Origin: Caldivirga maquilingensis IC-167
Lineage (GTDB): Archaea > Thermoproteota > Thermoprotei > Thermoproteales > Thermocladiaceae
DNA length: 32,000 nt
Assembly: GCF_000018305.1 (NCBI RefSeq)
Contig: NC_009954.1
Coordinates: forward strand, 1-32,000
Direction: 5' to 3'
Position numbers and translations under genes: made by a program. The notes beneath the pieces are model-generated. The model ran no database searches, was not told where the DNA came from, and worked only from the letters and a program-made list of their open reading frames with translations. Shown here piece after piece: positions 3 to 14,903 of the stretch (position 1 is the first letter of the stretch; every line of letters starts with the position of its first letter).

Positions 3-3000
3 TTACTTAGCGCCAGGCCCAAATAAGCCTCCTGCCAACCTCCTCCTCCTCCAGTTACCGTACTCTATCAGCAGCACCACTATTATTATTATCACAATCA
101 GTATTATGACTGCCACTAGTATTAGCGTACTTAACGGCACGAAGGCACCGAATATTACGTAGCCGCTTATTGGCACAATAGCCCTAACACTCATCACTGA
201 GCCAACGGTTGGAGTCACTGTGGTTGAGTTGGTTACACCATAAGCACTCACACTAACTGTGTATGACACGCCACCTGGCACTATAACGCTCACTGAACCA
301 ACACCAGCTGCAATCTGCTTACCACTGTAAGTTACGGCAATCTGTGCATTACTCAACTGAACACCATTAATGGTGTAGGCGGCTATACTCAACTGGCTAA
401 CCGGCACACTCACTGATGCCTGTGTACCAGGTGACACAGTGACTGTTATTGGTGATAATGGTACACCACTCACATTACCAATCAGTGAATATGTTCCACT
501 CGGCACAATTATACTTACATCACTGGCCGAACCACTGGCAATAGTCCTACCATTATACTGTAGGGCTAGTGAGTAGCTGCTCGGTATCAAACCACCGGCA
601 AAGCTGACTGCAATCTTACCAACAGGTATAGTGGCTGATGCTACTTGCCCAGTAGCCACTGACACACTTATTGGTGATAATGGTACACCACTCACTACTC
701 CAGTTAAACCATAGGTACCAGCTGGAACAACTATACTCACTGCACTTGCTGATCCACTGGCAATAACCATACCATTGTACGTTAAGTTCAATGTGTAGCT
801 ACTTGGCACGTAACCACCAGCGAACTGGACGGCAATCTTACCCACCGGTATAGTTACCGATGCCACTGAACCAGCACCAACACTAAAGCTCATTGCTGAC
901 AGCGGCACACCGTCAATTGTACCATTTATACTGTATGAGCCGGCTGGGACAACAACACTTACATCACTCACACCACCACTGGCAATAACCATACCATTAT
1001 ACAGCAGGTTCAGTGTGTAGCTGCTTGGTACTAAGCCACTGGCGAAGCCAACAGCTACCTTACCAACAGGTATGGTGACTGGGGTAGTGGTGCCGTTGGT
1101 GACAGACACTGATATTGCTGATAATGGTACACTAGTAACCACACCGGTTAAGCTGTAGCTACCTGGTGGTAACACTAAGCTTACGTCACTGGCTGATCCA
1201 CTGGCAATAACCATACCATTGTATGTTAAATTCAACGTGTAGCTGGTTGGTGTTAAGCCGCCGGCAAACTGGACAGCCAATGCACCAGCTGGGGCAATTA
1301 AACTCTGCACTGCACCATTCATTACTGTGGCGCTTAGGCTCTCTGGAACACCCTGTATTGAAATATCCACGGTGTAGGTTGTACCACTGGCACTATTCAC
1401 AGGTAGTACGAATGTACCAGGTAGTGAACCAGTGGTTACCTGCGTTGTACCATAATATACTGTCACTGAGGTCTGCTCAGTGGGTAACGGCTTCAAGGCT
1501 GGTGTCACTGTTAATGCACCAGCTGGTACAGTGTACTGTATTGGTGCTGTGGCATTGCTTGGAGTCAGTGTGTATATCCTGGTTGAGTAGACGCCTATGG
1601 GTACATGCATCCACTGTACTGTGGTTACATTAACAATAGCACCACTTACGCTTATTGGTAATACTGGTGTAGTTACAGTACCACTTGATGGCACAGTGAA
1701 CGCTCCTGAGAATACCTGCGCCGGAATGGGTCCACTAATTATTGGTACACCAGCACTAGTTATACCATTGAAAATATACTCTGGTTCAGTTACCGTTATA
1801 CTAACATTGGCTCCAGTTGGTATACTGCCAACACTGGTTAATGTGCTAAGTGATAATAAACCAGTGCTGACACCAACGATTACCGGTACGTACACTGCCC
1901 TTAATGTAACACTGAAGACACCGCTTGGCACAGTGGCACCACGCTGTATACTGAATGTTGCATTACCAGCCTCAACATAACTATTATCATACACCGGCAC
2001 GTATGCTATAATGAAGAAGCTTGTTGCAGGTACCTGGCTATACACAGTGGTGCCTATGCTACTCACCCTATGGTCGTATATTGTTGCTGAACCACTGGTT
2101 CCGGTGGTTGTCATGCCCTCAAACTCAACACCCTGCGCTGTTGAATCATAGACTAGTACAGTGGCATTGCTAACTGGCTGACCACCAGTGTTCTCCACTG
2201 TAACAGTCATGGCGTACACATACGTCCTAACACTGGTTGCTGAGAATGAGTCACCTAACTGGTACACGTCATTGGGTACTGAGGTGTCGTAGATGTCTAT
2301 GAAGTAGTACTTCTTCGGGTTAAGTAACCAAAGTGGGTAACTATCATACCAGTACACCGCAATCCTAACCGGTGGCTTGGCTGAAGTCGCCGCTGTTACG
2401 CTTGACTGACCCACTGTGACACCGTATGCGCTTGACGTGTAGGTTGTGGTGAATGCAGTACTGTTAATACCCTTTAATGCTGTTGATGTTACTGAGGTGC
2501 CGTTGGCGTATGTTGCCGTTGCTGATACTGAGACGCTGACTGGTAATGGTTGGGCTAGTGTACCATTCTGCGTTGTTACAGTTAAACCAACTAGATTGTT
2601 ACCGAAGTACACTGCCACGGTCTGGTTTGCTAGTGGTCTACTGTTCCAATCCTGCACCACGGTTAATGGGGCATAGTAGACGCTTACAGTGAAGGTACCG
2701 GCCAACGTTGTCTTAATGTACTGGTCACCGTCAGTGGTTGGGAACGTCATACCTGTGTCAACCCAACCACCAAGCACCTTACCAACAAGCCTATAGTAAC
2801 CACTGCTCACTGATGCTTGTACAACCGTGGCGTTTGTGCCTGCGTATAATTCAGTGAAGGGTATCTGTATGTTGGCTGACTGGCTAACCACAATTGGTGT
2901 AATGAAGCCTTGCACCGCACTTAATGGTAATTCACCGGTATAGCCATTAACAGTCACCGGCTGGCCAGCGTAGTTGTATAGGTAGAATACGAAGGCCTCA

Positions 3001-6000
3001 GTGTACGGTGTGTAGGTTACGTTGTACAGGTACTTGACGTAGTATGATATGCTTAAGTCCATTGAAGGCTCAACAAAGGACATTACATTAACTGGAGCCA
3101 TCTCGCTCTCTAATGCGGCTAAAACCTCAGTGGCGTTTATTGCGAAGGTTGAGCCGTATAGTCCAGTCACCGGTATGGTGGTTATCATGCCGAACGGTAA
3201 CTGGACTGGTGTGGGGAATGATGCACTGGTTATTTCAGTTCCGTTAACGTAGTATACGTAGCCTGTGGCGTTGACGCCAGCCATCACTGTGGCGTATGGT
3301 ATTGGTGATGGTGGCGTCATGGTGTTGTACACTTGAATACCCTCAAGGTACACTGTGGGTAGGTTAATCGCGTTATGCATTATATCAATGAAGGCCAGTG
3401 GCTTACCCTCAACGACACCGTATATCGCATACAGTGGCCAGAACCCGGCTCCAGTGCCGAATCCAACACCAGGTATGCCTTCACTCATGTCACCACTGAA
3501 TGATGCAGCAACCACGCCAGGCTTCAGTGAGCTAACGTATATTGTTGACCAGTTACCTGTCACGTTATAGGCGTTAAGCACCATGAATAATGAGGCGTTA
3601 ACATATGGTAGAGTCACTATGGCGTTGCTTGGTGCGTAACCAGTAGTCATGACTGAGATCCAGCTTGGCTGGTTGGGTGTGCTTGGTGTACTTAACACAT
3701 ATGCCCTAGCAATCCTAGCGAAGAATAATGCATTAGCAGCCTCACTGCTTGGTGACGTGGTTAAGAGGCTTGGGTATAGCGTACTCACCTTAATCAGTAC
3801 CCTGGTTAGGTTGAGTTCAGGCAGTATTGGCGTGTAGCCAGCGGTGTTTAATGCGTAGGTTGGTATGTCTACTAAAGCCTCACCGCTTGGCCCAACTGAA
3901 ACCAGTAGCGTGAATGGTGAACCGAAGTAGTTGGCCCAACCAACTGGTGTTGTGGCTGTGGCGAACGGTAGCGTTGTGCCATTAACCGGCACAACCCTCC
4001 ACCACACTAGGCCCTTACCGTATCCAGTACCGTTATTGTAAACAGTGATACTGCTCCTGGATAAGTAGCCACCCATTGCTGTTGAGATCACTGGCGTTGT
4101 CTCAAAGGCCCAGCCTGAACCAGTACCGTAAACTATTATTGAAACAACCTCACCAGTAACCGTCGCCTTTCCACTTAAGACCTGGGTTAGTAGCTTAGCT
4201 GCGGTTAAGTTTGTTACCTGGGTTAATAGACTCTGAACACTCACAGTGAACGCCATGGGTACCCATCTGCCAACAGCCAGGTTATAGTACATTGTTAGGT
4301 TCTTAGTGGCCACGTCAACAACGAAGGTACCCGTTGCGTTGGTGACCAGTAACTGCACCACTGCCGTGGCGTTGATTATGCTGCTGCCTGGCTCAACATA
4401 TATATATGCCTCAAAGGTCCTTAATGCCAACGCCGCAGTGGATGGTGAGAAGCCTAATGATACAGTGCTATTGAATCCGTAGAATGAGCCTAGGGTAACA
4501 GGGGTGGTTGTTGGTAGTGTTACCTCGGCTGCAAGCTCATTAATCTTAACTGCACCGCTTAGGCTTGGTGGGAATAGTAGTGAGACGTATGGCGTTGTCA
4601 CGTATGTTGGTACACTGGTTGTGAATATTGATGTACCAACAGTCACATTAGTTATGTAGGCTGAGCCACTCCAAATGAAGTTACTCATGGGTAGCTCAGT
4701 GATGCCTACACCAGGCGCCATTACGTAGCCTGCTAGGTTGGGTAGGTAGTAGGCTATTAATGCGTACTCTGATTGCGGTGAGGCGTATTTACTGTAGTCA
4801 ACGCCACTGTAGCTATTGGATATGTACTCTGAACCCTCCCTGGCTATGTAGGTTGCTGCATTAATGTAGGCTTCACTCAACGTCTCGAATGGTGAAAGTA
4901 ATGATGATAGGTAGCCGGCTGCCCATGATGATACACTTGACGGTACTGCTTGACTTGGTATAAGTACCTTGAATAATGAATCGTAGAATGTTAAAGCAAC
5001 CACAGTGTTACCCACATTATAACCTAAGCTCTTACTGGTGACGTTAAGTAACACTGGATACACGCTGCTAACTATAACTATTGAGTTAGGTGGCACTTGT
5101 ACAGGCATACCACCCTCATACACAGTGTAGCTGCTCACGAACTTAATGGTGCCGTTGGCGTAAACCAGGGTTATCATACCCGGCGGCGGCACTATTATGT
5201 TGCCGCTGAACACCTCATAGCCCAGGTAGAATACTTTACCGTAGAATACTTGATTAGGCATGAATAACCTAACCAGGAAGCCTGTTGATGACCTACCGTA
5301 TGGGTATGATGGTATCTTGAATACTGCGTACTGGCTTGTACCTGAGGCGTTGGCTAAGTATATTGAGGTTAATAGGTATGACTGATTGTTAAGCACATCA
5401 CTGTATAATCCCTCACCTAAAGCCACAGACGTCAGGTTATAGAATATTGAAGCCAACCTAGTGTACAGTGACTTAGCTCCAGCAACACCCATTGTACTGA
5501 AGAATGTTAGGTTCCATGCATTATATGGGTAGGTGAACCAGACGCTTGCACCATTGTATGGACTGAAGGCGTCGTAGATAAGTAACGTAGTATTCATCCA
5601 GACTGCGGCACCAGGCAGCGCCATGGCTGGGTAAACCAACTGGTTGGCTAGGACATTATTCTGGGCATCAACCACGTAGGCGTGCAGGTTCTCAACATAG
5701 ACAGGTATCTCGAAGGTGTAGTAGCAGGATGTGTTAACTGGTATTGAATACTGGGCATTATAGTAAGCCACTAATCCCTCATCAATCTGAGCCCTAGTAC
5801 CAAACGTGTACGCTGAAACACCTGATGGTAGGCCTAGCCAAGCCGCGTACTCCGCATAGGTCTGGTTCCATAGTGACTGCAGGTAGGTGTATGTCCAAGA
5901 CTCCTCAGTACTCGGTATAATGGTTCTGACCTTTAATTCAAAGTAACTATTAGGCATTATGTAACTTGCGTTAATGGGTACATTCATTATGACTGCGGTA

Positions 6001-8819
6001 CCGTAGTTGGGTAACCCGGTTTGAGCATTAGCTGGAGGTAACTGGAACCCGGTAATGTGGCCATTAGCCACGAACTCAGTGGTGCCGTTGGTAATACCCT
6101 CAGTTATCTTCTGCCCAGTAACTGAACTGTAGGCCGCCACAACAAAGCCAGGTAGCGGTGTTGCCGGTGTAGTTACATTAGTTACTACCTGAATCACCAC
6201 GTCAATCAATGGGAAGTATATGAGGTTAACCACAGTGGGCTCTAGGGTTATTGGAGTCGTTATGGCCTGCCTTGTGAATGGATTAACAGGCGGCATTACG
6301 TAACCGAAGTAGTTCAGTGTGAAGCTTGCTGTTGGTGAAACAACAGTAACGGGTACATTCCACATGTTAACCTGCACTGGGAACTGGAGCACTGTGTATG
6401 GGTAGGCGAATAACAGTGACACATTGAACTTACCGTACGTTGTAGATACCGTGACAACACCCTGGGTTATGGTTTCATTGCATAGGTTAACGAACTCAAC
6501 CTTATATAAAGCAACGTGAACAGCAGTAATACCCTGCTCAGCAAAGTATGAGCCAGTAGCCGCAGTGAAGAAGGCCTCTTGGGCTGTGCCGTATAGCGTA
6601 TTGTTAACTAGGCTTGGGTAATACTGAGATGGATAATAGGCCTCAAATATTGGGTATATGTAGCCGCTTGGTATTGCTAATGGGGCATTGTAAACATTAA
6701 CACTTGAACTATTATAACTGGCCTCAAAAACACCTGAACCAACCAGTATTGTACCGTAGTAGAGCTGTAGGTTGAAGTACTCCAATTGAGTTGTTGGGTA
6801 GTAGAATGGCTCAGCGGTTAGTGATTCACCAGGTATTACTGATGCTGAGCTGAAGGTACCCTGCAGTGTGGGTAAGGGTAGTTCAACAACAGGTGATTGA
6901 GCCAAGAAGCCGTTACTTATGTGAACTACTTGAAGCGCCGGGAACACGGCTACTGTTGCTACTGTTGATGCTGAACTATACATTGTTACGTTACCAGTGG
7001 CCATTAGCGATAACTGTGATGTGGATGGACCGGCTAATAACACTGCCTTAATCTGCTCAGCCTTCTCAGCAAGTAGAGGCTCTTGACTAGTTACTGCAAC
7101 ACCGGGTGTGTACAAGGTTACCTCAAGTACAGTGGGTAGTAGTGATGTCCATATACTGCTTATGGTTACTGTGGGTGTATTATACTTTATGGCTAGGTTG
7201 ATTAATGATGATATGTTTAGTAAGGCTACATCCCAAGTACCACTTGTTGTTTGAAGCTCAATGGTAAGCATCATCTTAGTTGGTGAAATAGGTTGAGCCG
7301 TTGGTGATGTTGGTGGGTATACAGTGCCCGTGAATTCAACAGCCGGTATTGTGAAGCCCTCTATTAGGAAGCTTATTGGCAATGGACCATAGAGTATCTG
7401 CGCCAACTGCGGGCCAGTGGTTATCTCAAAGAGCAGTGAGGCTGTTGGTGAGAACTCGAAGCTGCTTGCAGCTATCAAATTACCCTTAATATCATATATG
7501 TTATGCGCTAACAGTGTTATTAAACCGCCTGCAATAACTAAGTCAGGTAAGCCTTCAAAATGCAGAACCCCTGTTGACGACTTCACTACACCATACCCGT
7601 AACCATCCATTGACGTTATGTTGAAGAAGGCATCATAATGGAAGTCGTAGCCAACCAATGCACCACCGAGGAGTAGACTACCGTTTGAGTATCCAGCTGA
7701 GGCGTAGTTGGTGGTTGCGTATACTGGCACTGACACAATACTCTGGGTACCTGGGTTGTAGTAACTGTACGTTACATTTATTGTGAAGTAAACTGGGTTA
7801 CTACTACCACCCTCAGCGTAACCCAGTAGGTGACCGTTCTGGAATATTAAACCAGTGAAGTACACTAATGGCCCGAAGGCGGCATAGCTGACACCGTCAC
7901 CGTATATGCTGGTGCTGAATTGACTTGCCGTTGGGTTGTAGGATAATGAGGAATTCACTATAATAGGCGTACCATTATAATACTCAGCGAATGTTAAGGC
8001 CAAGTCACTTAGTATTGATGATGACACTGAGGAGGCTACTCTTGAATCATTTAAATCAGTCCCAAACCAAATATATATTACATTAACACCAGGCAATGGT
8101 AACGCGTAGTACTCACCCGTAGTGCCGTTAACCTGAACCATTATTTGGAATTCCTTACCATTAGGCGCCGTTAAGAATGAGGGTGTTGAGCTTGATGCAG
8201 CACTAGTTAAGTTGGCTAGTAGGCTACCTAATTGGGCTGGTGCAGTGGTGAAGTTGAATGCAACCCACTGGTAACCATCATAGTTAATAGTAACTACAAC
8301 GAACCAGGAGGCGGTGAAGCTTGAGTAGTTCAGTGACTCAGGTGATACCGGTAGCTGGAAGCTGCTGGTGAATCCACCAGTGCTGTTTAGGGTTACTGTG
8401 AATGATTCACCAACCAGTAGGCCTATATCACTGGAGACTGCCGTATTGAAGTAGTCTAGGTAGGAGCCTGGAACCAGTGTGCCGTCGGGGTACTTTATGT
8501 CTGATGCGTTAAGTATGTAGAATGTTATTGTTTGCCCAGCGACACCGTAGTATGCTGGGACTGTGTCGTAGAGCAAGTGGTACATGCCCACTAGCGTAGT
8601 GTTTAGACTACTTACATAGGATACTGGTGGTTGAGCGTAGGCTAGGTTTAGTGATATTGTGAAGGTTTGATTAACTATCTTAACAGTAGGCGGCACCGGT
8701 GGACCAGGTAGGCTTATTGCCTTAACCGCATGCCCAGCCCAGGCTAGGGCCAGGGCTAGGGCTACTGCGAGCACTGGTAGTATTTTTGCTATTCCGTATT
8801 TCCCGGATTTATTGGACAT
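3..8819 (-). CDS. Giant (2938 aa) exported, C-terminally membrane-anchored, N-glycosylation-sequon-rich surface protein; candidate S-layer/envelope glycoprotein
   Basis: Uninterrupted 8.8-kb ORF with a true ATG (cat at 8817-8819) and a TAA stop (tta at 3-5). The N-terminus MSNKSGKYGIAKILPVLAVALALALAWAGHAVKA/IS is a classic signal peptide (nt ~8718-8819). The C-terminus has one very hydrophobic helix (FGAFVPLSTLILVAVIILIVIIIIVVLLI, nt ~66-152) followed by RRRR and a short tail. Composition is dominated by S/T/V/Y/N/A/G with sparse D/E/K/R and only 2 Cys. I counted 11 N-x-S/T sequons in the first ~290 residues, and similar density continues. No catalytic motif was recognised. The S-layer assignment itself is inference (about 0.35); the confidence given is for the CDS and its exported, anchored nature. 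Confidence 0.85.
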   Translation of the reverse strand: MSNKSGKYGIAKILPVLAVALALALAWAGHAVKAISLPGPPVPPTVKIVNQTFTISLNLAYAQPPVSYVSSLNTTLVGMYHLLYDTVPAYYGVAGQTITFYILNASDIKYPDGTLVPGSYLDYFNTAVSSDIGLLVGESFTVTLNSTGGFTSSFQLPVSPESLNYSSFTASWFVVVTINYDGYQWVAFNFTTAPAQLGSLLANLTSAASSSTPSFLTAPNGKEFQIMVQVNGTTGEYYALPLPGVNVIYIWFGTDLNDSRVASSVSSSILSDLALTFAEYYNGTPIIVNSSLSYNPTASQFSTSIYGDGVSYAAFGPLVYFTGLIFQNGHLLGYAEGGSSNPVYFTINVTYSYYNPGTQSIVSVPVYATTNYASAGYSNGSLLLGGALVGYDFHYDAFFNITSMDGYGYGVVKSSTGVLHFEGLPDLVIAGGLITLLAHNIYDIKGNLIAASSFEFSPTASLLFEITTGPQLAQILYGPLPISFLIEGFTIPAVEFTGTVYPPTSPTAQPISPTKMMLTIELQTTSGTWDVALLNISSLINLAIKYNTPTVTISSIWTSLLPTVLEVTLYTPGVAVTSQEPLLAEKAEQIKAVLLAGPSTSQLSLMATGNVTMYSSASTVATVAVFPALQVVHISNGFLAQSPVVELPLPTLQGTFSSASVIPGESLTAEPFYYPTTQLEYFNLQLYYGTILVGSGVFEASYNSSSVNVYNAPLAIPSGYIYPIFEAYYPSQYYPSLVNNTLYGTAQEAFFTAATGSYFAEQGITAVHVALYKVEFVNLCNETITQGVVTVSTTYGKFNVSLLFAYPYTVLQFPVQVNMWNVPVTVVSPTASFTLNYFGYVMPPVNPFTRQAITTPITLEPTVVNLIYFPLIDVVIQVVTNVTTPATPLPGFVVAAYSSVTGQKITEGITNGTTEFVANGHITGFQLPPANAQTGLPNYGTAVIMNVPINASYIMPNSYFELKVRTIIPSTEESWTYTYLQSLWNQTYAEYAAWLGLPSGVSAYTFGTRAQIDEGLVAYYNAQYSIPVNTSCYYTFEIPVYVENLHAYVVDAQNNVLANQLVYPAMALPGAAVWMNTTLLIYDAFSPYNGASVWFTYPYNAWNLTFFSTMGVAGAKSLYTRLASIFYNLTSVALGEGLYSDVLNNQSYLLTSIYLANASGTSQYAVFKIPSYPYGRSSTGFLVRLFMPNQVFYGKVFYLGYEVFSGNIIVPPPGMITLVYANGTIKFVSSYTVYEGGMPVQVPPNSIVIVSSVYPVLLNVTSKSLGYNVGNTVVALTFYDSLFKVLIPSQAVPSSVSSWAAGYLSSLLSPFETLSEAYINAATYIAREGSEYISNSYSGVDYSKYASPQSEYALIAYYLPNLAGYVMAPGVGITELPMSNFIWSGSAYITNVTVGTSIFTTSVPTYVTTPYVSLLFPPSLSGAVKINELAAEVTLPTTTPVTLGSFYGFNSTVSLGFSPSTAALALRTFEAYIYVEPGSSIINATAVVQLLVTNATGTFVVDVATKNLTMYYNLAVGRWVPMAFTVSVQSLLTQVTNLTAAKLLTQVLSGKATVTGEVVSIIVYGTGSGWAFETTPVISTAMGGYLSRSSITVYNNGTGYGKGLVWWRVVPVNGTTLPFATATTPVGWANYFGSPFTLLVSVGPSGEALVDIPTYALNTAGYTPILPELNLTRVLIKVSTLYPSLLTTSPSSEAANALFFARIARAYVLSTPSTPNQPSWISVMTTGYAPSNAIVTLPYVNASLFMVLNAYNVTGNWSTIYVSSLKPGVVAASFSGDMSEGIPGVGFGTGAGFWPLYAIYGVVEGKPLAFIDIMHNAINLPTVYLEGIQVYNTMTPPSPIPYATVMAGVNATGYVYYVNGTEITSASFPTPVQLPFGMITTIPVTGLYGSTFAINATEVLAALESEMAPVNVMSFVEPSMDLSISYYVKYLYNVTYTPYTEAFVFYLYNYAGQPVTVNGYTGELPLSAVQGFITPIVVSQSANIQIPFTELYAGTNATVVQASVSSGYYRLVGKVLGGWVDTGMTFPTTDGDQYIKTTLAGTFTVSVYYAPLTVVQDWNSRPLANQTVAVYFGNNLVGLTVTTQNGTLAQPLPVSVSVSATATYANGTSVTSTALKGINSTAFTTTYTSSAYGVTVGQSSVTAATSAKPPVRIAVYWYDSYPLWLLNPKKYYFIDIYDTSVPNDVYQLGDSFSATSVRTYVYAMTVTVENTGGQPVSNATVLVYDSTAQGVEFEGMTTTGTSGSATIYDHRVSSIGTTVYSQVPATSFFIIAYVPVYDNSYVEAGNATFSIQRGATVPSGVFSVTLRAVYVPVIVGVSTGLLSLSTLTSVGSIPTGANVSITVTEPEYIFNGITSAGVPIISGPIPAQVFSGAFTVPSSGTVTTPVLPISVSGAIVNVTTVQWMHVPIGVYSTRIYTLTPSNATAPIQYTVPAGALTVTPALKPLPTEQTSVTVYYGTTQVTTGSLPGTFVLPVNSASGTTYTVDISIQGVPESLSATVMNGAVQSLIAPAGALAVQFAGGLTPTSYTLNLTYNGMVIASGSASDVSLVLPPGSYSLTGVVTSVPLSAISVSVTNGTTTPVTIPVGKVAVGFASGLVPSSYTLNLLYNGMVIASGGVSDVSVVVPAGSYSINGTIDGVPLSAMSFSVGAGSVASVTIPVGKIAVQFAGGYVPSSYTLNLTYNGMVIASGSASAVSIVVPAGTYGLTGVVSGVPLSPISVSVATGQVASATIPVGKIAVSFAGGLIPSSYSLALQYNGRTIASGSASDVSIIVPSGTYSLIGNVSGVPLSPITVTVSPGTQASVSVPVSQLSIAAYTINGVQLSNAQIAVTYSGKQIAAGVGSVSVIVPGGVSYTVSVSAYGVTNSTTVTPTVGSVMSVRAIVPISGYVIFGAFVPLSTLILVAVIILIVIIIIVVLLIEYGNWRRRRLAGGLFGPGAK
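393..1280 (-). repeat. Four tandem 222-nt (74-aa) near-identical repeats inside the giant CDS, immediately N-terminal to the membrane anchor
   Basis: The string ccactggca recurs at 532, 754, 976 and 1198, an exact 222-nt spacing. Protein units are (L/V/I)AVxFAxGLxPSSYTLNLxYNGMVIASGSASDVSxVVPxGSYSLxGxVSGVPLSxISVSVxxGxxxxxTIPVGK at aa 2514-2809. More degenerate copies flank them at 162..392 and 1281..1472. Confidence 0.9.
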
Positions 8820-8841
8820 AAGCCCCTCCTAGAGCCACCCC

Positions 8842-8849
8842 TATTTAAA
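8842..8849 (-). promoter_or_regulatory. TATA box (TTTAAATA on minus strand) of the giant gene
   Basis: The A/T octamer lies 23-30 nt upstream of the ATG at 8819, the same spacing seen for most first-in-unit genes here. An AGGAGG (8825-8830) also sits 5 nt before the ATG, so a leaderless mRNA versus a short leader cannot be decided from sequence. Confidence 0.55.
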
Positions 8850-9054
8850 GAACCCCTCAGCCTCATCATGGAACAGTTAAAATAAGATCATGGAACCAAG
8901 CAAAACCATCAATGAACCAACACGACTAAGTAAACTCAACGCAATTCCACCATTAATTAACATCAATACGGCTTAATCACACATGGGCTTAAGCCGGAGG
9001 AGTGATTCAGTTTGAAGAAAATGGTTTAATTATTTTAAAGGTAGTTCACTTTAA

Positions 9055-11400
9055 TTACTTGTCAAGCAGTTGCGTACCGTAGTACACCAGGTTACCCACG
9101 TCTAGTGAACCAAAACCATTGACAGGGTTCCAGATGCATGGATTCTTAATAACCCAACCATTCACAGCCGTGGCGCCGTTTTGACCATATATTGATGGGT
9201 AGAAGACACCGTGGGTGTTTGTGCCGTAGACTGATGTTGGGTAGTAGGCGTTGCAGAAGCTTGAACCAGCCTCAGTGGCCCATATTTGGCTTAATGGCAC
9301 TGCGGCTAAGCCTACTTGGTAAGGTATGCCGGCTTTATTCAAGTAGTCCTGCCATAGGGCAACCATACCCATGGTTAATGGTGACGCCAGGCTAGTGCCA
9401 CCCCATATGAATGGGTTAAGTTCACCATCAATCACTATCAACACACCTGTATATGGATTAGCGTCAGCTGAGACTATTGGGTAACCCTTAGCGCCAATGG
9501 GTACGTATAGGCTTGGATAAAGCATCCACTCAAAGGTCCTGTAGAGGGGCGTGTATGGGTTAATGTTGAGTGTGGGTACGTAGGGTTCATTAACGAAGAA
9601 TTGACCAAGCAATAGACCCCATATTAATGGCTGGAACTGGGTTTGCTCATAGAAATTACCCTCACCTATTAGGTTGAATATGTACTGGTACTGGTAGAGC
9701 GGCATATCGAAGAATATTGAGTAACCACCGCCACTCCCCCAATATATTAAGTCCCATGGAGGTAGGCCGAAGCTGTAGAAGCTCCACGCGGTAATGAACC
9801 TTGATCCACCTGGGAACAGGTAGCTTGTTGTTCCACCAACCCCAGTGACCCATGGGTCAATGGATGGGTGGAAGGCTGAGACGAATGGGTAGAACTCGTA
9901 GGCACCAGAGTCACCGGAGGAGGCGAATACACCAATGCCCTGTGCCGCTGCCTGCATGAATATTTGATCGTAGGCTAAGGCATAGTATGGGTCAAGGTAG
10001 TCCTCTGATAAACCCCAGCTTAGGCTAATGAAGTTAACTAGGCTCTCATTAACCATGTACTCAATGGTAACGTATAAGTCATCCCCAGCATCAGGGGACA
10101 CCCCGAAGACTATCCTGGCCCCTGGGGCTATTGCGTGAACCCACTCATTATCGAGGACTGATTCAAAGGACCAACCGCAAGCATCAACGCTGTTAAACGG
10201 AGTGATGAATGGTTCACCAGCCGGGTATATTACTGTAATACTCGCTGGAGGTAGGTCGAAGAGTGATGAGAATGCATTAACATCACTAACTATTATATCG
10301 TTGTACGGTGATAAGGCGTAGCCGCAGAATCCGTTAACTAAATGACTCTCAGCGTCACCGAAGGCGTCAACTATACCCACGGTAACTGATGAACCGTTGT
10401 AACCGTTGTAATCACCAATGAACCAAAGCGGGTACAGTGGTGTGGCATTGTAAAGTAGCTCAATACCCTGGGGTAGGTATACTTCTATTGGGAATTGCAG
10501 TATGAATTCACTGGGCTTATTTAACGCTGAGTTGGCTAAGGCGCTTTGAGCCTCCAATTGAACAGCAACAGGCTTACCGTTAATCACCAGCGGTGACTTT
10601 GAGACAACGCCACTGGGCTTAATCATACTGTAGCTAGGCTGCACCTGAAACTCCCTAGCCAGGTATAGGGCTAAGGCGTGGCCAACACTGTAACCGTGGC
10701 TACCCCTCACGTAGACGGCATACTTCATTAAGACTGGTTGACCCTTATAAGTTACCGGTAGTTGGATTACACCAGTGTTATTATTAATAGATTCAACGGT
10801 CTTAAGCAACTGCTGAAACTCACCGGGTGTTATTTCAAGGAAGAAGCCCTGTGGATTAGTCTCAGTAACCAACACCCAACTAACCCATGAAAACGAAGCA
10901 TTATTGTAAATGAAGTACTCTATCGTCGCGTTAATTATTGATATGCAGGCGTTGTAAGCATTACTCTGCACACCTAATGCAGCATACATTGGTGCTGACT
11001 TAACCTCCGTGGTTAAGTTATAGTAACTGTATATTGCCGTTAAGTTACCGTAGACGCTTGCTGGCGCTGAGTACCATTCATCGAATTCAGCCGCTGATAT
11101 GAACCTGTGGTATAGTGGGCTTGAGGGATTATAGTACTCACTATAAAGCACGTTACCTAAGCCTGTGGCGTTGTTTAGGTATAGGAACGTTATTAGGCTT
11201 GTTGGGTAGGGTAACGGTATAAAGGTCCCATTAGGTGCAATAATTCCATATTCTATGCAAAACACCTCTGAGCCCAGGTAGTATGGGTTTGGTTGATCAG
11301 GTGATTGAGCGTTAACCACGTATAGTGAGATGACTATAGCCACTGTTACAGCCACTAGTATTGCAGCTATTTTACCCCCTTTACTGAATCTATAATCCAT
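9055..11400 (-). CDS. Secreted sedolisin-family (MEROPS S53) serine-carboxyl peptidase with a long N-terminal pro/extra region
   Basis: True ATG at 11398-11400. N-terminal signal or signal-anchor KIAAILVAVTVAIVISLYVVNA/QS. The S53 catalytic set is recognisable: E413-x3-D417 in SFESVLDNEWVHAIAPGA (codons 10162-10164 and 10150-10152), oxyanion Asp in ASSGDSGA (D497, 9910-9912), and the nucleophile Ser in WGGTSLASP (S670, 9391-9393). The catalytic domain starts near VTVGIVDAFGD (aa ~340). Confidence 0.85.
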   Translation of the reverse strand: MDYRFSKGGKIAAILVAVTVAIVISLYVVNAQSPDQPNPYYLGSEVFCIEYGIIAPNGTFIPLPYPTSLITFLYLNNATGLGNVLYSEYYNPSSPLYHRFISAAEFDEWYSAPASVYGNLTAIYSYYNLTTEVKSAPMYAALGVQSNAYNACISIINATIEYFIYNNASFSWVSWVLVTETNPQGFFLEITPGEFQQLLKTVESINNNTGVIQLPVTYKGQPVLMKYAVYVRGSHGYSVGHALALYLAREFQVQPSYSMIKPSGVVSKSPLVINGKPVAVQLEAQSALANSALNKPSEFILQFPIEVYLPQGIELLYNATPLYPLWFIGDYNGYNGSSVTVGIVDAFGDAESHLVNGFCGYALSPYNDIIVSDVNAFSSLFDLPPASITVIYPAGEPFITPFNSVDACGWSFESVLDNEWVHAIAPGARIVFGVSPDAGDDLYVTIEYMVNESLVNFISLSWGLSEDYLDPYYALAYDQIFMQAAAQGIGVFASSGDSGAYEFYPFVSAFHPSIDPWVTGVGGTTSYLFPGGSRFITAWSFYSFGLPPWDLIYWGSGGGYSIFFDMPLYQYQYIFNLIGEGNFYEQTQFQPLIWGLLLGQFFVNEPYVPTLNINPYTPLYRTFEWMLYPSLYVPIGAKGYPIVSADANPYTGVLIVIDGELNPFIWGGTSLASPLTMGMVALWQDYLNKAGIPYQVGLAAVPLSQIWATEAGSSFCNAYYPTSVYGTNTHGVFYPSIYGQNGATAVNGWVIKNPCIWNPVNGFGSLDVGNLVYYGTQLLDK

Positions 11401-11453: not shown

Positions 11454-14400
11454 TTACCTTAATCTTCTACTCAATACAATTAATAATACCACTGTAACTG
11501 TAAATATGATTAATGCTATTGAATAATAACCCACCGCTGGTTTACTTAATAGGCATGCTTCATTAATGGGTACTAGTGGTTTAATGATACCGTAGGCGTT
11601 ACTCACCTGCCTAACACTATACTCACCGCACTTAACCATTACTGTTACGAATGGTTCCGGTAACCCCAGTGAATCCGTAACCTTAAACACCCTGTACGCT
11701 ACATCAGCCTCAGCGTTAATGGGTTGATTAACCATTGAGGCGTTTACTATTAATGGTTCCTTAAGCCTAATTGTTAAGTTACCCCATTTAACACTACTGA
11801 TGATTGGGCTGCTTGCATTAACCCACCCACTAATAATAGTTAACGGTGTGTTGTTTAAAGTGTGTACGCTGATGCTTATGAACCACTGCTTAAGGTACAT
11901 TACAGTTACGTTTAATGGGGCATTAACCACCAATTGATTAGAGTTTATCGGCTTCCCATTAACCAGAATACCGCTTAGTATTAGCCTAGTGCTGTTTCCT
12001 AGGCTTAACACTGGGGTTGGGCTTAAGTTAAGTCTAGTTGATGCGTTAACCCAATACTCCTCAAACATCCACGGTGACTCATCTATCGTGGTTACATTGG
12101 TTAATAGGTACTGGGGTGTGTAGGATTCATTAATAATCATTGGACCAGTCACATTAATGATAATGCTATTTACCCTAGGTATGAGCCTGGTTAGGTTGCT
12201 TAACTCAATAATGGTATTAGTTATCTTAATTATTGAATCTGAGTTAACCCATTCACTAGTCTCATTAAACACACCGAGCTTAGAGTATTTAACCATGGTT
12301 ACTAGGAATTGAATAACATAAGTCACGTTAATAATTATCGGCTCATTAACAGTAACCTCAACCACAGGGGTCCTTGGTATTAGCCTAACGCTGCTATTAA
12401 TGTTAACCACCGGCCTCGGCATTACCCTGAGTATTGAGTCTGAGTTAACCCAAAGCCAAGTCTCATTAATTAAACCAAGCCTTGAGTACTCTATTATAGT
12501 TACATTATACTGCCTAGTGTAGTTCACGGTTACTGTAAGTGGCTTATTAACAATCACTGTTACTGGTGTTTCATTAATGAGCCTAGTACCGTTATTGAAG
12601 TACACGAACATAGGGTACTTTATCACATAACCCTCCCTAAACCAACCCTCTGTTGAGTTAATGGGTAACCCATTCACAAGTACATTAACCCTAACCCAAT
12701 ACTCCCTAATCCAAAGAACATCAAGGTAATTAACCATTCTACTCAACCTTATTGAGAATGAGTTATTGGCTATGTATTCACCGTTGAATATTGAACCATT
12801 GTATATTAGTCTAGTTCCATTCCCCAACGTTAAAACCAGTGGTAATGTCACATTAACAGTCTCATTACCGAGATAGTAGCCTGAAAGCTTTAACGCTAAA
12901 CCTGATTCATCCATCACTATTAACTCACTGTGAAGTACAACATTCACCATTATGCATAATGGCCCATAATCAATGTAAATGCTCCCATTGAATAGACTCC
13001 ACGTGTATGCGCATACGGTGTAGGCGCCATTGTTGGTGAAGTTCCTCACTAATTGGAGTGATGTAATGTTGGTTTCATTTAAGGTGAATATTCTTAAGCC
13101 ATTAGTACTTATGATTAATGTTAGGTTACCTGGCTTACTTAGATTAAGGTATATTAATACGCTTTGATTACCAGGTATTATTGGCTTAACACCCATGTCC
13201 TCGATTACCGGCGTTCTCCACGTGATGTTAATTACGTTTAAGCCAGGCTTAAGATGAATAATGGTTTCACCCAGGTATTGAACGGTACCGTTGATTAACC
13301 TAATTGTGAATAACCTAATTAAGCCTACTCTACTTAATGTTAGGTTGAATAATGATGCATTACCCAGTATTATTGAATCATTAACCACACCACTCATAAT
13401 TACCCTATACTCCCCAGCCTCATTGGGTGCCCTAATGGTAACGTTGACTATTGGGGTTAAGTCAACGTCAAGTGTTACTGATGAATTAATGTTTATGTTC
13501 TCCGACTCACCTATGAAGTACCTAGCCTTAATACTCATTGAGTAATTATTACACACAACCATTAGTGAGGCTTCACCCGACCCATTACTCAACGCCACAT
13601 ACTTATTGGCGTTAGGCCAATTACTAACTAGGGTTATGGATGCGTTAGCCACTGGTTCACTGGTTCCATTAACCATAACCCTCACTGTTACATTGCATAG
13701 CCTAACCCTACTCAGCATTAGGTTAATAACCTCATTGGAATCCACAATAACGCGCTCAGTCACGTTATAATAGCCCTCAGCCTGGGCTAGTAAGGTATAT
13801 TGGCCTTGGGGGAGGGGTATTGTTGAATTCGGGGTTATGCTCAATGAGACTGGGCCGCTTAATTTAATTAATGCATTCCGGGTGTTGGTTAATAGGGTTA
13901 CATTATATATTACTGGTATTGCCTCCCGGGAGGCCACCGATGATGAACCATCATTACCAACCACGTAGAGGACACCAGGTGAGATTGGGGTTATTGAGTA
14001 GAGTATTAGCGGTAGGTATAGGTTCCCACCTTGAATAGTGTTGTAGAGTGGTGTTAAACCATATATTGAGTAGTAGCCGTAACCACCATCACCACTTGAT
14101 GTTGAGCCAGCGAAAACATACTCATAATCAATGTAAGTAACACTGGTGAGTAGACTGTATTGGTTCAGGTACATGCTTAAATCCTTGAATTCACCATTAC
14201 TAATATTGAATATGCCAGCCACCGGCACTTGAATTAGGTAACCGGAGGAATTAACCACACCTTCACCAACAACCATGAATCCAAGGGGCCCGTACGCCGC
14301 TGAGTATAGTACGTAATTGTAATTTGATGGTAATTTACTGCTCAGGTTTATTAAGGAACCAGTTGACATATTATAGAACCCTAATGCAGCACCATTAAGG

Positions 14401-14903
14401 CCCTCACCGACAATTAGGAACCCGCCGTCACCGTATGCTGCACCGTAGAGGGCTTTGAAGCCTATTGGCTTAATAATACTGTAACCAACCCCAGTGGTTA
14501 ATACTATTAACCCAGTGTTATTAACTGAACCAAGGGCCATGAAGTAACCGTCACCGTAGGCAACACCATATAAGGCCCCAGTACCATTAATATTAATAAC
14601 ATTATAAGCACCATTGGTTAAATTATAGATGATGAAAACCGGCCCACCGCCCTGGCTCACACCAACGGCAACAGCCATACACCCACCCACAGCCACTGAG
14701 TAGAGTATTGAGACGCCATGCACGCCCACAGTGCTGTATGGACCTGAATTACCCATTACACTAATTAACCCAACACCCCCGGATTCACCAACTATTACAA
14801 TGCGGCCACAGCCATATGCTACACCATAGTATAATTGACTACTCGCCACGAGCGATACGGCTAATGTAATTACAGTGACTATAACCAGTACCTGCAGCTT
14901 CAT
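11454..14903 (-). CDS. 1149-aa exported, C-terminally anchored multi-repeat surface protein (propeller-like N-domain plus tandem beta-modules)
   Basis: True ATG at 14901-14903. Signal peptide MKLQVLVIVTVITLAVSLVASS. C-terminal helix YYSIALIIFTVTVVLLIVL (nt ~11472-11528) followed by SRRLR and the stop. Many N-x-S/T sequons. Internal repeats are listed separately. Two segments resemble carboxypeptidase-regulatory-like beta-sandwich patterns (CNVTVRVMVNGTSEPVANASITLV and YRVFKVTDSLGLPEPFVTVMVK); that resemblance is a weak by-eye call. Confidence 0.85.
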   Translation of the reverse strand: MKLQVLVIVTVITLAVSLVASSQLYYGVAYGCGRIVIVGESGGVGLISVMGNSGPYSTVGVHGVSILYSVAVGGCMAVAVGVSQGGGPVFIIYNLTNGAYNVININGTGALYGVAYGDGYFMALGSVNNTGLIVLTTGVGYSIIKPIGFKALYGAAYGDGGFLIVGEGLNGAALGFYNMSTGSLINLSSKLPSNYNYVLYSAAYGPLGFMVVGEGVVNSSGYLIQVPVAGIFNISNGEFKDLSMYLNQYSLLTSVTYIDYEYVFAGSTSSGDGGYGYYSIYGLTPLYNTIQGGNLYLPLILYSITPISPGVLYVVGNDGSSSVASREAIPVIYNVTLLTNTRNALIKLSGPVSLSITPNSTIPLPQGQYTLLAQAEGYYNVTERVIVDSNEVINLMLSRVRLCNVTVRVMVNGTSEPVANASITLVSNWPNANKYVALSNGSGEASLMVVCNNYSMSIKARYFIGESENININSSVTLDVDLTPIVNVTIRAPNEAGEYRVIMSGVVNDSIILGNASLFNLTLSRVGLIRLFTIRLINGTVQYLGETIIHLKPGLNVINITWRTPVIEDMGVKPIIPGNQSVLIYLNLSKPGNLTLIISTNGLRIFTLNETNITSLQLVRNFTNNGAYTVCAYTWSLFNGSIYIDYGPLCIMVNVVLHSELIVMDESGLALKLSGYYLGNETVNVTLPLVLTLGNGTRLIYNGSIFNGEYIANNSFSIRLSRMVNYLDVLWIREYWVRVNVLVNGLPINSTEGWFREGYVIKYPMFVYFNNGTRLINETPVTVIVNKPLTVTVNYTRQYNVTIIEYSRLGLINETWLWVNSDSILRVMPRPVVNINSSVRLIPRTPVVEVTVNEPIIINVTYVIQFLVTMVKYSKLGVFNETSEWVNSDSIIKITNTIIELSNLTRLIPRVNSIIINVTGPMIINESYTPQYLLTNVTTIDESPWMFEEYWVNASTRLNLSPTPVLSLGNSTRLILSGILVNGKPINSNQLVVNAPLNVTVMYLKQWFISISVHTLNNTPLTIISGWVNASSPIISSVKWGNLTIRLKEPLIVNASMVNQPINAEADVAYRVFKVTDSLGLPEPFVTVMVKCGEYSVRQVSNAYGIIKPLVPINEACLLSKPAVGYYSIALIIFTVTVVLLIVLSRRLR
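11709..12941 (-). repeat. Five to six tandem ~66-77-aa modules (pattern ...xTRLIPRxxxxxxxVxxPxxxNVTYxxQYxVTxxxYSxLGxxNETxxWVNSDSIxxx)
   Basis: Protein-level periodicity spans aa ~655-1065. Two adjacent units keep DNA-level similarity: ctgagttaaccca at ~12238 and ~12437, a spacing of about 198 nt. Resemblance to bacterial InlB-B-repeat-like beta modules is a by-eye impression only. Confidence 0.65.
13910..14830 (-). repeat. About seven degenerate ~40-50-aa repeats with motif (L)Y(G/S)(V/A)AYG-x-G-x-(F/I)(V/M)(V/I/A)VG-E/S-G; beta-propeller-like
   Basis: Units seen in the translation: YYGVAYGCGRIVIVGESG, LYSVAVGGCMAVAVGVSQG, LYGVAYGDGYFMALGSVNN, LYGAAYGDGGFLIVGEGLNG, LYSAAYGPLGFMVVGEGVVNSSG, LTSVTYIDYEYVFAGSTSSGDG and LYSITPISPGVLYVVGNDGSS. 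The propeller fold is inferred from periodicity only. Confidence 0.6.

Follow-up and report, generated by a model that had tools for sequence, protein, structure and literature searches.

The first 32,000 nucleotides of contig NC_009954.1 of Caldivirga maquilingensis IC-167 (the stretch that we analyzed, here called the window) open with an 8.8-kb gene on the reverse strand, the longest open reading frame (ORF) of the window. We conclude that this gene very probably encodes the surface layer (S-layer) protein of C. maquilingensis, an ortholog of PySLP of Pyrobaculum arsenaticum. The 2938-amino-acid (aa) product matches UniRef100_A8M9H4, a C. maquilingensis entry labeled "hypothetical protein," at 100% identity from end to end, and we refer to it as A8M9H4. 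We found that A8M9H4 has a signal sequence, a stalk and a core with immunoglobulin-like (Ig-like) folds, a membrane-proximal β-hairpin, and a transmembrane (TM) helix that leads into a basic tail with Lys as its last residue. It carries an excess of N-glycosylation sequons and is homologous to the PySLP family over the lattice-forming region as well as the pillar. A first-pass annotation of this DNA had described the product as a crenarchaeal surface protein that is stable to acid and heat and carries heavy N-glycosylation; the signal sequence, the TM anchor, the sequon excess, the homology to an S-layer family, and the habitat of the organism all support that description.

PySLP was reported in a bioRxiv preprint dated 2026-08-21 (10.64898/2026.08.21.746120). 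According to the available sections of the preprint, the P. arsenaticum S-layer was solved by electron cryomicroscopy (cryo-EM), electron cryotomography, and mass spectrometry (MS) and was assigned to this "colossal" 292-kDa protein of 2667 aa (UniProt A0A7L4PAH2). It has a 23-aa signal peptide, 19 Ig-like domains, a core that forms the lattice, a crown specific to Pyrobaculum, and a pillar with eight Ig-like domains in tandem, and its C terminus runs from a β-hairpin through a TM helix to a basic tail with a final Lys. The same sections name UniProtKB A8M9H4 as the C. maquilingensis homolog, based on BLAST and AlphaFold 3 (AF3) models, and describe it as lacking the crown. The text gives the accession as A8M9H4, but the legend to Fig. 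7 of the preprint prints A8M8H4, an apparent typographical error; the protein of the window is A8M9H4. In the literature that we searched, no further paper names it. A8M9H4 is therefore already known in kind and by name, and its identification adds little by itself. Several points described below do not appear in the available preprint sections: the dichotomy in charge and Cys content, an invariant Cys pair, variation in stalk length driven by repeats, and a conserved S53 peptidase neighbor.

As far as the preprint describes PySLP, A8M9H4 resembles it: in both, one colossal chain carries a signal peptide, a lattice region toward the N terminus, an Ig-like pillar, a hairpin, a TM helix, a Lys-ended basic tail, and N-x-S/T sites. 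BLASTP alignments were colinear with all three genera compared. Identity was 44% for a Thermocladium-like protein (P0004; 99% of the query covered; E = 0), 29% for a Vulcanisaeta protein (P0036; 89% covered, aa 1 to 2484; E = 1e-176), and 23 to 33% for a Pyrobaculum sp. protein (P0026; 2633 aa, 14 Cys; 61% covered; E = 8e-33). P0026, an ortholog from a metagenome-assembled genome (MAG), was our Pyrobaculum comparator in place of the PySLP sequence A0A7L4PAH2; its similarity spans aa 647 to 1213 and 1701 to 2746 of A8M9H4. A genome scan found Thermocladium loci at 45 to 48% identity over nearly the full length. The family is small: when a profile built on aa 30 to 1100 was searched exhaustively with HMMER, only 17 relatives came back among 1.84 billion representatives, including proteins of 2.3 to 2.7 kaa labeled Vulcanisaeta and Pyrobaculum. 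Word-indexed homolog searches with the full protein or with an 11-sequence family alignment returned Caldivirga proteins only, and in such searches Thermoproteus-labeled fragments were reached with a C-terminal profile alone. The 11-sequence full-length alignment contains invariant motifs throughout, including a C-terminal E-Y-x-x-W-R-R. The first-pass annotation had also called the gene exceptionally large, which is in line with the literature, as the ortholog is the largest encoded protein in both Thermoproteus tenax and P. arsenaticum.

Two observations concern the homologous loci themselves. Two contigs of Caldivirga sp. MU80 (L003 and L004) carry N-terminal homologs, one at 73% identity over aa 1 to 2077 and the other at 69% over aa 1 to 786; these could be two paralogous S-layer protein (SLP) genes or could reflect strain heterogeneity in the assembly. 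In the draft genome of Thermocladium modestius JCM 10088 (L007), the SLP homolog is split into at least six ORFs of 150 to 560 aa; a MAG locus (L006) has it as a single ORF of 2748 aa. Frameshift errors of the draft assembly, rather than a pseudogene, are the most likely cause of the breaks.

The features of A8M9H4 and of the genes upstream of it are listed in Table 1. We called the signal sequence from hydropathy, and its cleavage site is putative; V32, K33, and A34 at its end are invariant among the Caldivirga and Thermocladium-like homologs. To the eye of the first annotator, no known domain was recognizable, and sequence searches agreed: Pfam (the whole protein and six 500-aa pieces), NCBIfam, and the PDB sequence search gave nothing above threshold. 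Structure prediction nevertheless revealed arrays of Ig-like β-sandwiches. The annotation had proposed prediction in overlapping segments; we ran AlphaFold 2 (AF2) on two segments, aa 740 to 1720 and 2060 to 2938 (1860 residues), which defined the stalk and core domains and left much of the rest at low confidence. β-Sandwiches were modeled in the lattice region at aa ~770 to 1280, where the predicted local distance difference test score (pLDDT) was 80 to 92 across much of the core, and Foldseek matched them to the Bacillus anthracis TIE protein and to Ig-like domains of Gram-positive pilins. Confidence was low at aa 2060 to 2430 as well as in the segment that follows the core.

The module that is most conserved in the family includes a carboxypeptidase-regulatory-like β-sandwich at aa ~2200 to 2250, where DUF7382 and MG4 gave subthreshold matches, and it is also present in two Thermoproteus-labeled MAG protein fragments (P0012 and P0013), which are 31% identical to the C-terminal third of A8M9H4. 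Beyond it lies the stalk, which AF2 modeled as a string of ~74-aa all-β domains (pLDDT, ~80 to 88 for aa ~2434 to 2885). A repeat hidden Markov model (HMM) found six 74-aa copies, repeats make up ~15% of the protein, and Tandem Repeats Finder (TRF) detected the youngest copies as a tandem DNA array with a 222-bp period at 446 to 1251. The Foldseek matches of the stalk were tandem Ig-like arrays, namely, GhpA, the TIE protein, contactins, pilins, and Sulfolobus acidocaldarius SlaB. The hairpin, in which an aromatic residue is a conserved feature according to the preprint, carries Phe 2890 and Phe 2893, and the family alignment shows no variation at P2883, G2886, or P2895. In the tail, which has the motif EY-x-N-W-RRRR...K, residues E2919, Y2920, W2923, R2924, and R2925 are invariant. 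The preprint reports a final Lys as a trait of the family, and the C-terminal residue is Lys in 9 of 12 family proteins that we compared (eleven full-length and one partial); P0016 and P0017 end in Arg, and the partial P0018 ends in Pro.

Table 1. Features of the A8M9H4 gene and of the upstream genes (positions are those of the window)
Feature	Coordinates	Strand	Detail or basis
CDS, candidate S-layer protein, 2938 aa	3..8819	-	Stop codon 3-5; UniProt A8M9H4 / ABW00855.1 / WP_012185075.1
Signal sequence, aa 1-34	8718..8819	-	Lys-containing n-region, 17-residue hydrophobic stretch ILPVLAVALALALAWAG, AVKA; hydropathy
Extracellular N-terminal and middle region, aa 35-~2050	2670..8717	-	Counterpart of the lattice-forming part of PySLP; colinear BLASTP
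Conserved core, aa ~770-1280	4980..6512	-	β-Sandwich domains and two long helices (aa 1116-1158); AF2, Foldseek
C780 codon	6480-6482	-	Within conserved core
C1032 codon	5724-5726	-	Within conserved core
Region matching the PySLP crown insertion in position, aa 1281-1720	3660..4979	-	AF2 pLDDT <50
Most conserved family module, aa 2057-2300	1920..2651	-	DWNSRPLANQT...WYDSYPL...DVYQLGD...FSIQRGATVP; invariant alignment columns
Stalk (pillar), six tandem 74-aa Ig-like domains, aa 2430-2877	189..1532	-	Self-BLAST, TRF, repeat HMM, AF2
Membrane-proximal β-hairpin, aa 2886-2895 (GYVIFGAFVP)	135..164	-	AF2 strands 2886-2889 and 2892-2895, pLDDT ~63-70
Transmembrane helix, aa 2896-2918	66..134	-	Kyte-Doolittle hydropathy up to 4.1; AF2 helix aa 2896-2932
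Cytoplasmic basic tail, aa 2919-2938, Lys at end	6..65	-	EYGNWRRRRLAGGLFGPGAK; RRRR after TM helix
TATA-like box	8842..8849	-	TTTAAATA; 23-30 nt upstream of ATG; sequence reading
Secreted S53 (sedolisin/kumamolisin) peptidase, 781 aa, A8M9H5	9055..11400	-	Directly upstream of SLP gene; kumamolisin alignment
Type I membrane glycoprotein, 1149 aa, A8M9H6, PEGA and CarboxypepD_reg domains	11454..14903	-	Second gene upstream, same strand

The composition of A8M9H4 is as unusual as the first-pass annotation had stated. Its most frequent residues are V (11.7%), T (10.8%), S (10.8%), A (8.7%), L (8.4%), G (8.4%), Y (6.9%), P (6.8%), and N (5.0%), with S and T together reaching 21.6%. Charged residues (D, E, K, and R) account for 6.6% (193 residues, 119 acidic and 74 basic), and the isoelectric point (pI) is 4.74. 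The claim of only two Cys in 2938 residues is also correct; they are C780 and C1032. The annotation had called for a comparison of composition, pI, and sequon density with the rest of the proteome; we made it with the proteins of the window. The protein deviates clearly from 12 cytoplasmic ones (among them ribosomal proteins, thermosome, AOR, ThiI, and pyrophosphatase), which have 20 to 37% charged residues. It does not stand apart in the same way from other exported proteins: both exported neighbors are likewise charge poor (S53 peptidase, 9.9%; PEGA protein, 10.9%), and the PEGA protein is even denser in sequons. Among the window proteins compared, the composition of A8M9H4 is therefore the extreme end of a trend among the surface proteins of this organism and not a singularity.

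We counted 65 N-x-S/T sequons (x not P) in A8M9H4, or 2.21 per 100 aa, compared with 29.5 ± 4.7 expected from 2000 composition-preserving shuffles (z = 7.6); none of the 2000 shuffles reached 65. The reversed motif occurs only 26 times, the NxT-to-NxS ratio is 48:17, and 45% of all Asn residues lie within sequons, compared with 10% in the cytoplasmic set. The 12 cytoplasmic proteins together have 16 sequons, with 15.6 expected (0 to 1 per 100 aa). Our count reproduced the 11 sequons reported earlier for the first 290 aa. The further statement that this density continues throughout the protein needs qualifying, as the sequons fall from 12 per 300 aa at the N terminus to 2 to 5 per 300 aa over the last 540 aa, and 52 of the 65 lie in aa 35 to ~2050. 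A8M9H4 shares 26 sequons with homologs at 77% and 49% identity, and six (N104, N189, N911, N1076, N1145, and N1391) recur as sequons in 9 or more of the 11 family members. These shared positions support real glycosites, and the sequon pattern implies that a dense glycan coat would cover A8M9H4.

Within the family, we found two kinds of composition. The Caldivirga, Thermocladium-like, and Vulcanisaeta SLPs have 5.8 to 7.5% D+E+K+R, 20 to 22% S+T, and a pI of 4.2 to 4.9. In contrast, the Pyrobaculum-type proteins and several other members have 18 to 21% D+E+K+R, 12 to 14% S+T, and a pI of 4.5 to 9.1. The charge depletion, ~3-fold in every one of ten 300-aa bins, is limited to the Caldivirga, Thermocladium, and Vulcanisaeta proteins, and where the other group has charged columns, A8M9H4 most often has S, T, or N. 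One member (P0016, 2348 aa) is 46 to 48% identical to the Vulcanisaeta SLPs, yet it has 18% D+E+K+R and a pI of 9.1, compared with 6.9% and 4.3 for Vulcanisaeta. Because P0016 is charge rich inside the Vulcanisaeta clade, the composition is not simply inherited. Thermocladium and Vulcanisaeta are, like Caldivirga, moderate acidophiles, and Pyrobaculum species grow at pH 5 to 9. C. maquilingensis grows at pH 2.3 to 6.4, with optima of pH 3.7 to 4.2 and 85°C (PMC4187147). We favor, with some reserve, the view that low charge is an acid adaptation of the extracellular lattice, in which titratable groups would be scarce and a neutral polar surface would lie beneath the glycans.

Cys content divides the family as well. 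The Caldivirga and Thermocladium-like proteins have 2 Cys, the Vulcanisaeta proteins have 11 to 12, and the Pyrobaculum-type proteins have 14 to 16. Of the Cys columns, just those of C780 and C1032 are invariant in all 11 family sequences, and these two residues probably form a conserved disulfide or another essential pair. According to the available sections of the preprint, multiple disulfides and a highly charged surface were proposed as thermoadaptations of PySLP, whose crown is described as electropositive (10.64898/2026.08.21.746120). A8M9H4 differs from this description, with 6.6% charged residues compared with ~20% in the Pyrobaculum type, and from P0026, with 2 Cys compared with 14. 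The Caldivirga SLP thus has neither many disulfides nor a charged surface, despite an optimum of 85°C.

A8M9H4 also differs from the Pyrobaculum protein at the crown and in the stalk. We found no BLAST similarity to P0026 between aa 1213 and 1701, and the segment between the invariant anchors P1360 and F1632 is 272 aa in A8M9H4 and 384 aa in P0026, so the crown insertion site is ~110 aa shorter. Both observations fit the reported absence of the crown without proving it, as the AF2 model there is unreliable. The stalk segment between the invariant residues R2293 and P2806 is, conversely, ~170 aa longer than in P0026. It measures 513 aa in Caldivirga, 360 aa in the Thermocladium-like protein, 343 to 347 aa in the Pyrobaculum type, and 142 to 147 aa in Vulcanisaeta, making the stalk of A8M9H4 the longest in the family. 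These length differences predict different canopy heights, with Caldivirga above Pyrobaculum (37 nm) and Pyrobaculum above Vulcanisaeta. Separately, two proteins from a Caldivirga-type metagenome (P0008, 731 aa; P0010, 724 aa) combine a Cys-rich N-terminal head of their own with four copies of the same 74-aa stalk repeat, and the TM helix and tail of P0008 are identical to those of a 2932-aa homolog (P0002). P0008 and P0010 are paralogs with a shared stalk and might insert into the same pillars.

Upstream of the SLP gene is a 235-bp spacer (8820-9054) with a T-rich tract after the stop codon of the S53 peptidase gene. The TATA-like box lies within it, and a GGAGG is found 7 to 11 nt upstream of the SLP ATG. 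This arrangement suggests that the SLP gene has its own promoter, in addition to any operon with the peptidase gene, and that its mRNA may be leaderless or nearly so. The peptidase A8M9H5 aligns with kumamolisin (1gt9; E = 5e-14) such that E413, D417, D497, and S670 correspond to E78, D82, D164, and S278, with all four catalytic residues kept, and it is apparently an active acid protease. At two further Caldivirga loci, L002 and L003, an S53 ortholog (33% identity) occupies the same position and strand, as it does at two Thermocladium-type loci, L001 and L006 (46%). Among Vulcanisaeta-like contigs, an S53 homolog is adjacent in only 2 of 7 and on the opposite strand. The conserved position makes the S53 peptidase a possible partner of the SLP.

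The next gene encodes A8M9H6, which has a signal peptide, a TM anchor, and a basic tail. With 55 sequons (4.79 per 100 aa; z = 10.8), it is the most sequon-dense protein of the window, and it is probably another envelope component. It shares no sequence similarity with A8M9H4, so we rejected it as an SLP paralog, and we did not find its gene at the SLP loci of the other Caldivirga, Thermocladium, and Vulcanisaeta contigs examined. In Pyrobaculum and Thermoproteus, the SLP gene neighborhood contains an Ig-like membrane protein, AMMECR1, a thioredoxin-like protein, adenylate cyclase, and DNA ligase, according to the available sections of the preprint (10.64898/2026.08.21.746120). The surroundings of the A8M9H4 gene are different. 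Its upstream genes in the window encode the S53 peptidase, the PEGA protein, and S24e; as the window starts at the end of the SLP gene, we judged the downstream side from close homolog loci, and in the 77%-identical Caldivirga locus L002 it encodes ribosomal protein S2, EamA, and others. AMMECR1-type operon partners are no defining feature of the wider SLP family.

We compared A8M9H4 with other archaeal S-layer systems. The T. tenax ortholog TTX_1887 (2663 aa) was proposed as an S-layer protein in the genome paper on the reasoning that the first-pass annotation also used, as it is the largest protein, is rich in S, T, and N, and has an N-terminal signal and a C-terminal TM helix (PMC3189178). 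The preprint, in its available sections, places TTX_1887 in the same family (10.64898/2026.08.21.746120). SlaA/SlaB of Sulfolobales (PDB 7ZCX and 8QOX) also build the S-layer of acidophiles; it is heavily N-glycosylated, contains Ig-like domains, and has a stalk that keeps the canopy far from the membrane. The stalk model of A8M9H4 matched SlaB (8qox_B) in Foldseek (E = 3.9e-5; probability, 0.99). This similarity of fold is confined to the Ig-like part of SlaB, and the Pfam, NCBIfam, and PDB sequence searches gave no sequence-level match to SlaA/SlaB. SlaA/SlaB layers are assembled from two or three components, and their coiled-coil stalk belongs to a protein of its own, whereas A8M9H4 joins lattice and anchor in one chain and its AF2 stalk is all β, with no coiled coil. 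We therefore rejected membership in the SlaA/SlaB system. We also rejected a haloarchaeal PGF-CTERM/archaeosortase glycoprotein, as there was no NCBIfam match and the C terminus (GAFVPLSTLIL...EYGNWRRRR...K) has no PGF motif.

Tetrabrachion of Staphylothermus marinus is another giant single-polypeptide S-layer protein, with a long membrane-anchored coiled-coil stalk to which the subtilisin-like S8 protease STABLE is bound. The likeness lies in the single giant chain with its anchored stalk and in a protease, which is bound to the stalk in tetrabrachion and is encoded by a conserved adjoining gene in Caldivirga. The two differ in that tetrabrachion has a coiled-coil stalk and an S8 protease, whereas A8M9H4 has an Ig-like stalk and an S53 sedolisin as its neighbor.

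By homology with the solved PySLP lattice, we propose a hexameric lattice for A8M9H4. The precursor would be exported through Sec by its N-terminal signal sequence, N-glycosylated at many of the 65 sequons, and retained by the single C-terminal TM helix, with the short Arg-rich tail in the cytoplasm. Six chains would then bundle their C-terminal Ig-like domains, including the six 74-aa repeats, into a hollow stalk, as in the PySLP hexamer. The N-terminal ~2000 residues, which would consist of canonical and elaborated Ig-like domains, would interlock as a hexagonal p6 canopy tens of nanometers above the membrane. A canopy far above the membrane is the classic appearance of the Thermoproteales envelope in electron microscopy. 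The protein would be expected to be abundant in the envelope.

Several points weigh against this interpretation. The case for Caldivirga is built from sequence and models, and the basis that the preprint gives for A8M9H4 in its available sections is likewise BLAST and AF3 only (10.64898/2026.08.21.746120). AF2 was confident for only about half of the 1860 modeled residues (mean pLDDT, 61.6 and 53.9). The gene neighborhood of the Pyrobaculum and Thermoproteus SLPs is missing among the upstream genes in the window and downstream in locus L002, and a second anchored glycoprotein that is denser in sequons, A8M9H6, is encoded nearby. As for acid adaptation, it rests on a correlation across few lineages, and our confidence in it is limited.

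We considered whether A8M9H4 is instead a giant anchored surface glycoprotein of the same family that acts as an adhesin or spacer, with the Caldivirga S-layer built by another protein. The lattice in Caldivirga is itself a prediction, the stalk module is evidently reused (P0008 and P0010 carry the same stalk with a different head, and P0008 also has the same TM helix and tail), and MU80 has two loci with N-terminal homologs. However, the Pyrobaculum-type homology covers the lattice-forming region as well as the stalk, and there is one colossal member per genome where examined, which is the largest encoded protein. A8M9H4 also has the features expected of an abundant envelope protein and apparently its own TATA box, and we regard the adhesin or spacer explanation as improbable. 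We give somewhat less credit still to a two-component envelope, with A8M9H6 making up the outer layer, alone or jointly, and the giant protein serving mainly as stalk or anchor. A8M9H6 does have the signal peptide, anchor, basic tail, and sequon density of such a component and is encoded two genes upstream on the same strand, and two-layered envelopes have been reported for Pyrobaculum organotrophum. Nonetheless, the PEGA gene is not at the other Caldivirga, Thermocladium, and Vulcanisaeta SLP loci, its product has no sequence similarity to the SLP, and the Pyrobaculum lattice density is explained by PySLP alone, according to the available preprint sections (10.64898/2026.08.21.746120).

The composition itself could be a by-product of low complexity and repeats, or of a spurious ORF, with sequons simply following the N, S, and T content; the 222-bp tandem array at the 3′ end and the 21.6% S+T would be what such an explanation predicts. 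Yet the 8.8-kb frame is open and is kept at 44 to 77% protein identity in other genomes, the repeats cover only a small part of the protein while charge depletion is uniform in all ten bins, and the sequons are 7.6 standard deviations above composition-matched shuffles. Conservation and the shuffle test contradict a spurious or low-complexity ORF, and we find the by-product explanation scarcely credible. An S-layer protein orthologous to PySLP remains by far our preferred reading of A8M9H4.

The findings can be joined, tentatively and with considerable doubt about the whole, into a picture of the Caldivirga, Thermocladium, and Vulcanisaeta proteins as a nearly charge-free, glycan-shielded SLP variant of acid habitats, which in Caldivirga and Thermocladium has also lost all its Cys apart from the invariant pair. 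In this picture, stalk length would be tuned by gaining and losing 74-aa repeats, and the conserved S53 peptidase would be a dedicated partner. By analogy with STABLE, the protease would be matured on the stalk or docked there. The family offers a natural experiment in that the same architecture of ~2.5 to 2.9 kaa exists in a form rich in charge and Cys (Pyrobaculum, near neutral) and in a form with one-third of the charges and two Cys (Caldivirga, pH ~4), both at 80 to 100°C. This contrast separates acid from heat adaptation in an extracellular lattice and questions disulfides and charge as the source of Pyrobaculum thermostability. If the picture is true, disulfides and a highly charged surface would be dispensable for the heat stability of the lattice. 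These archaea have no cell wall other than the S-layer, which is also the surface that their viruses and the environment meet, and knowledge of its gene opens cryo-EM, glycoproteomic, and virus receptor work on Caldivirga.

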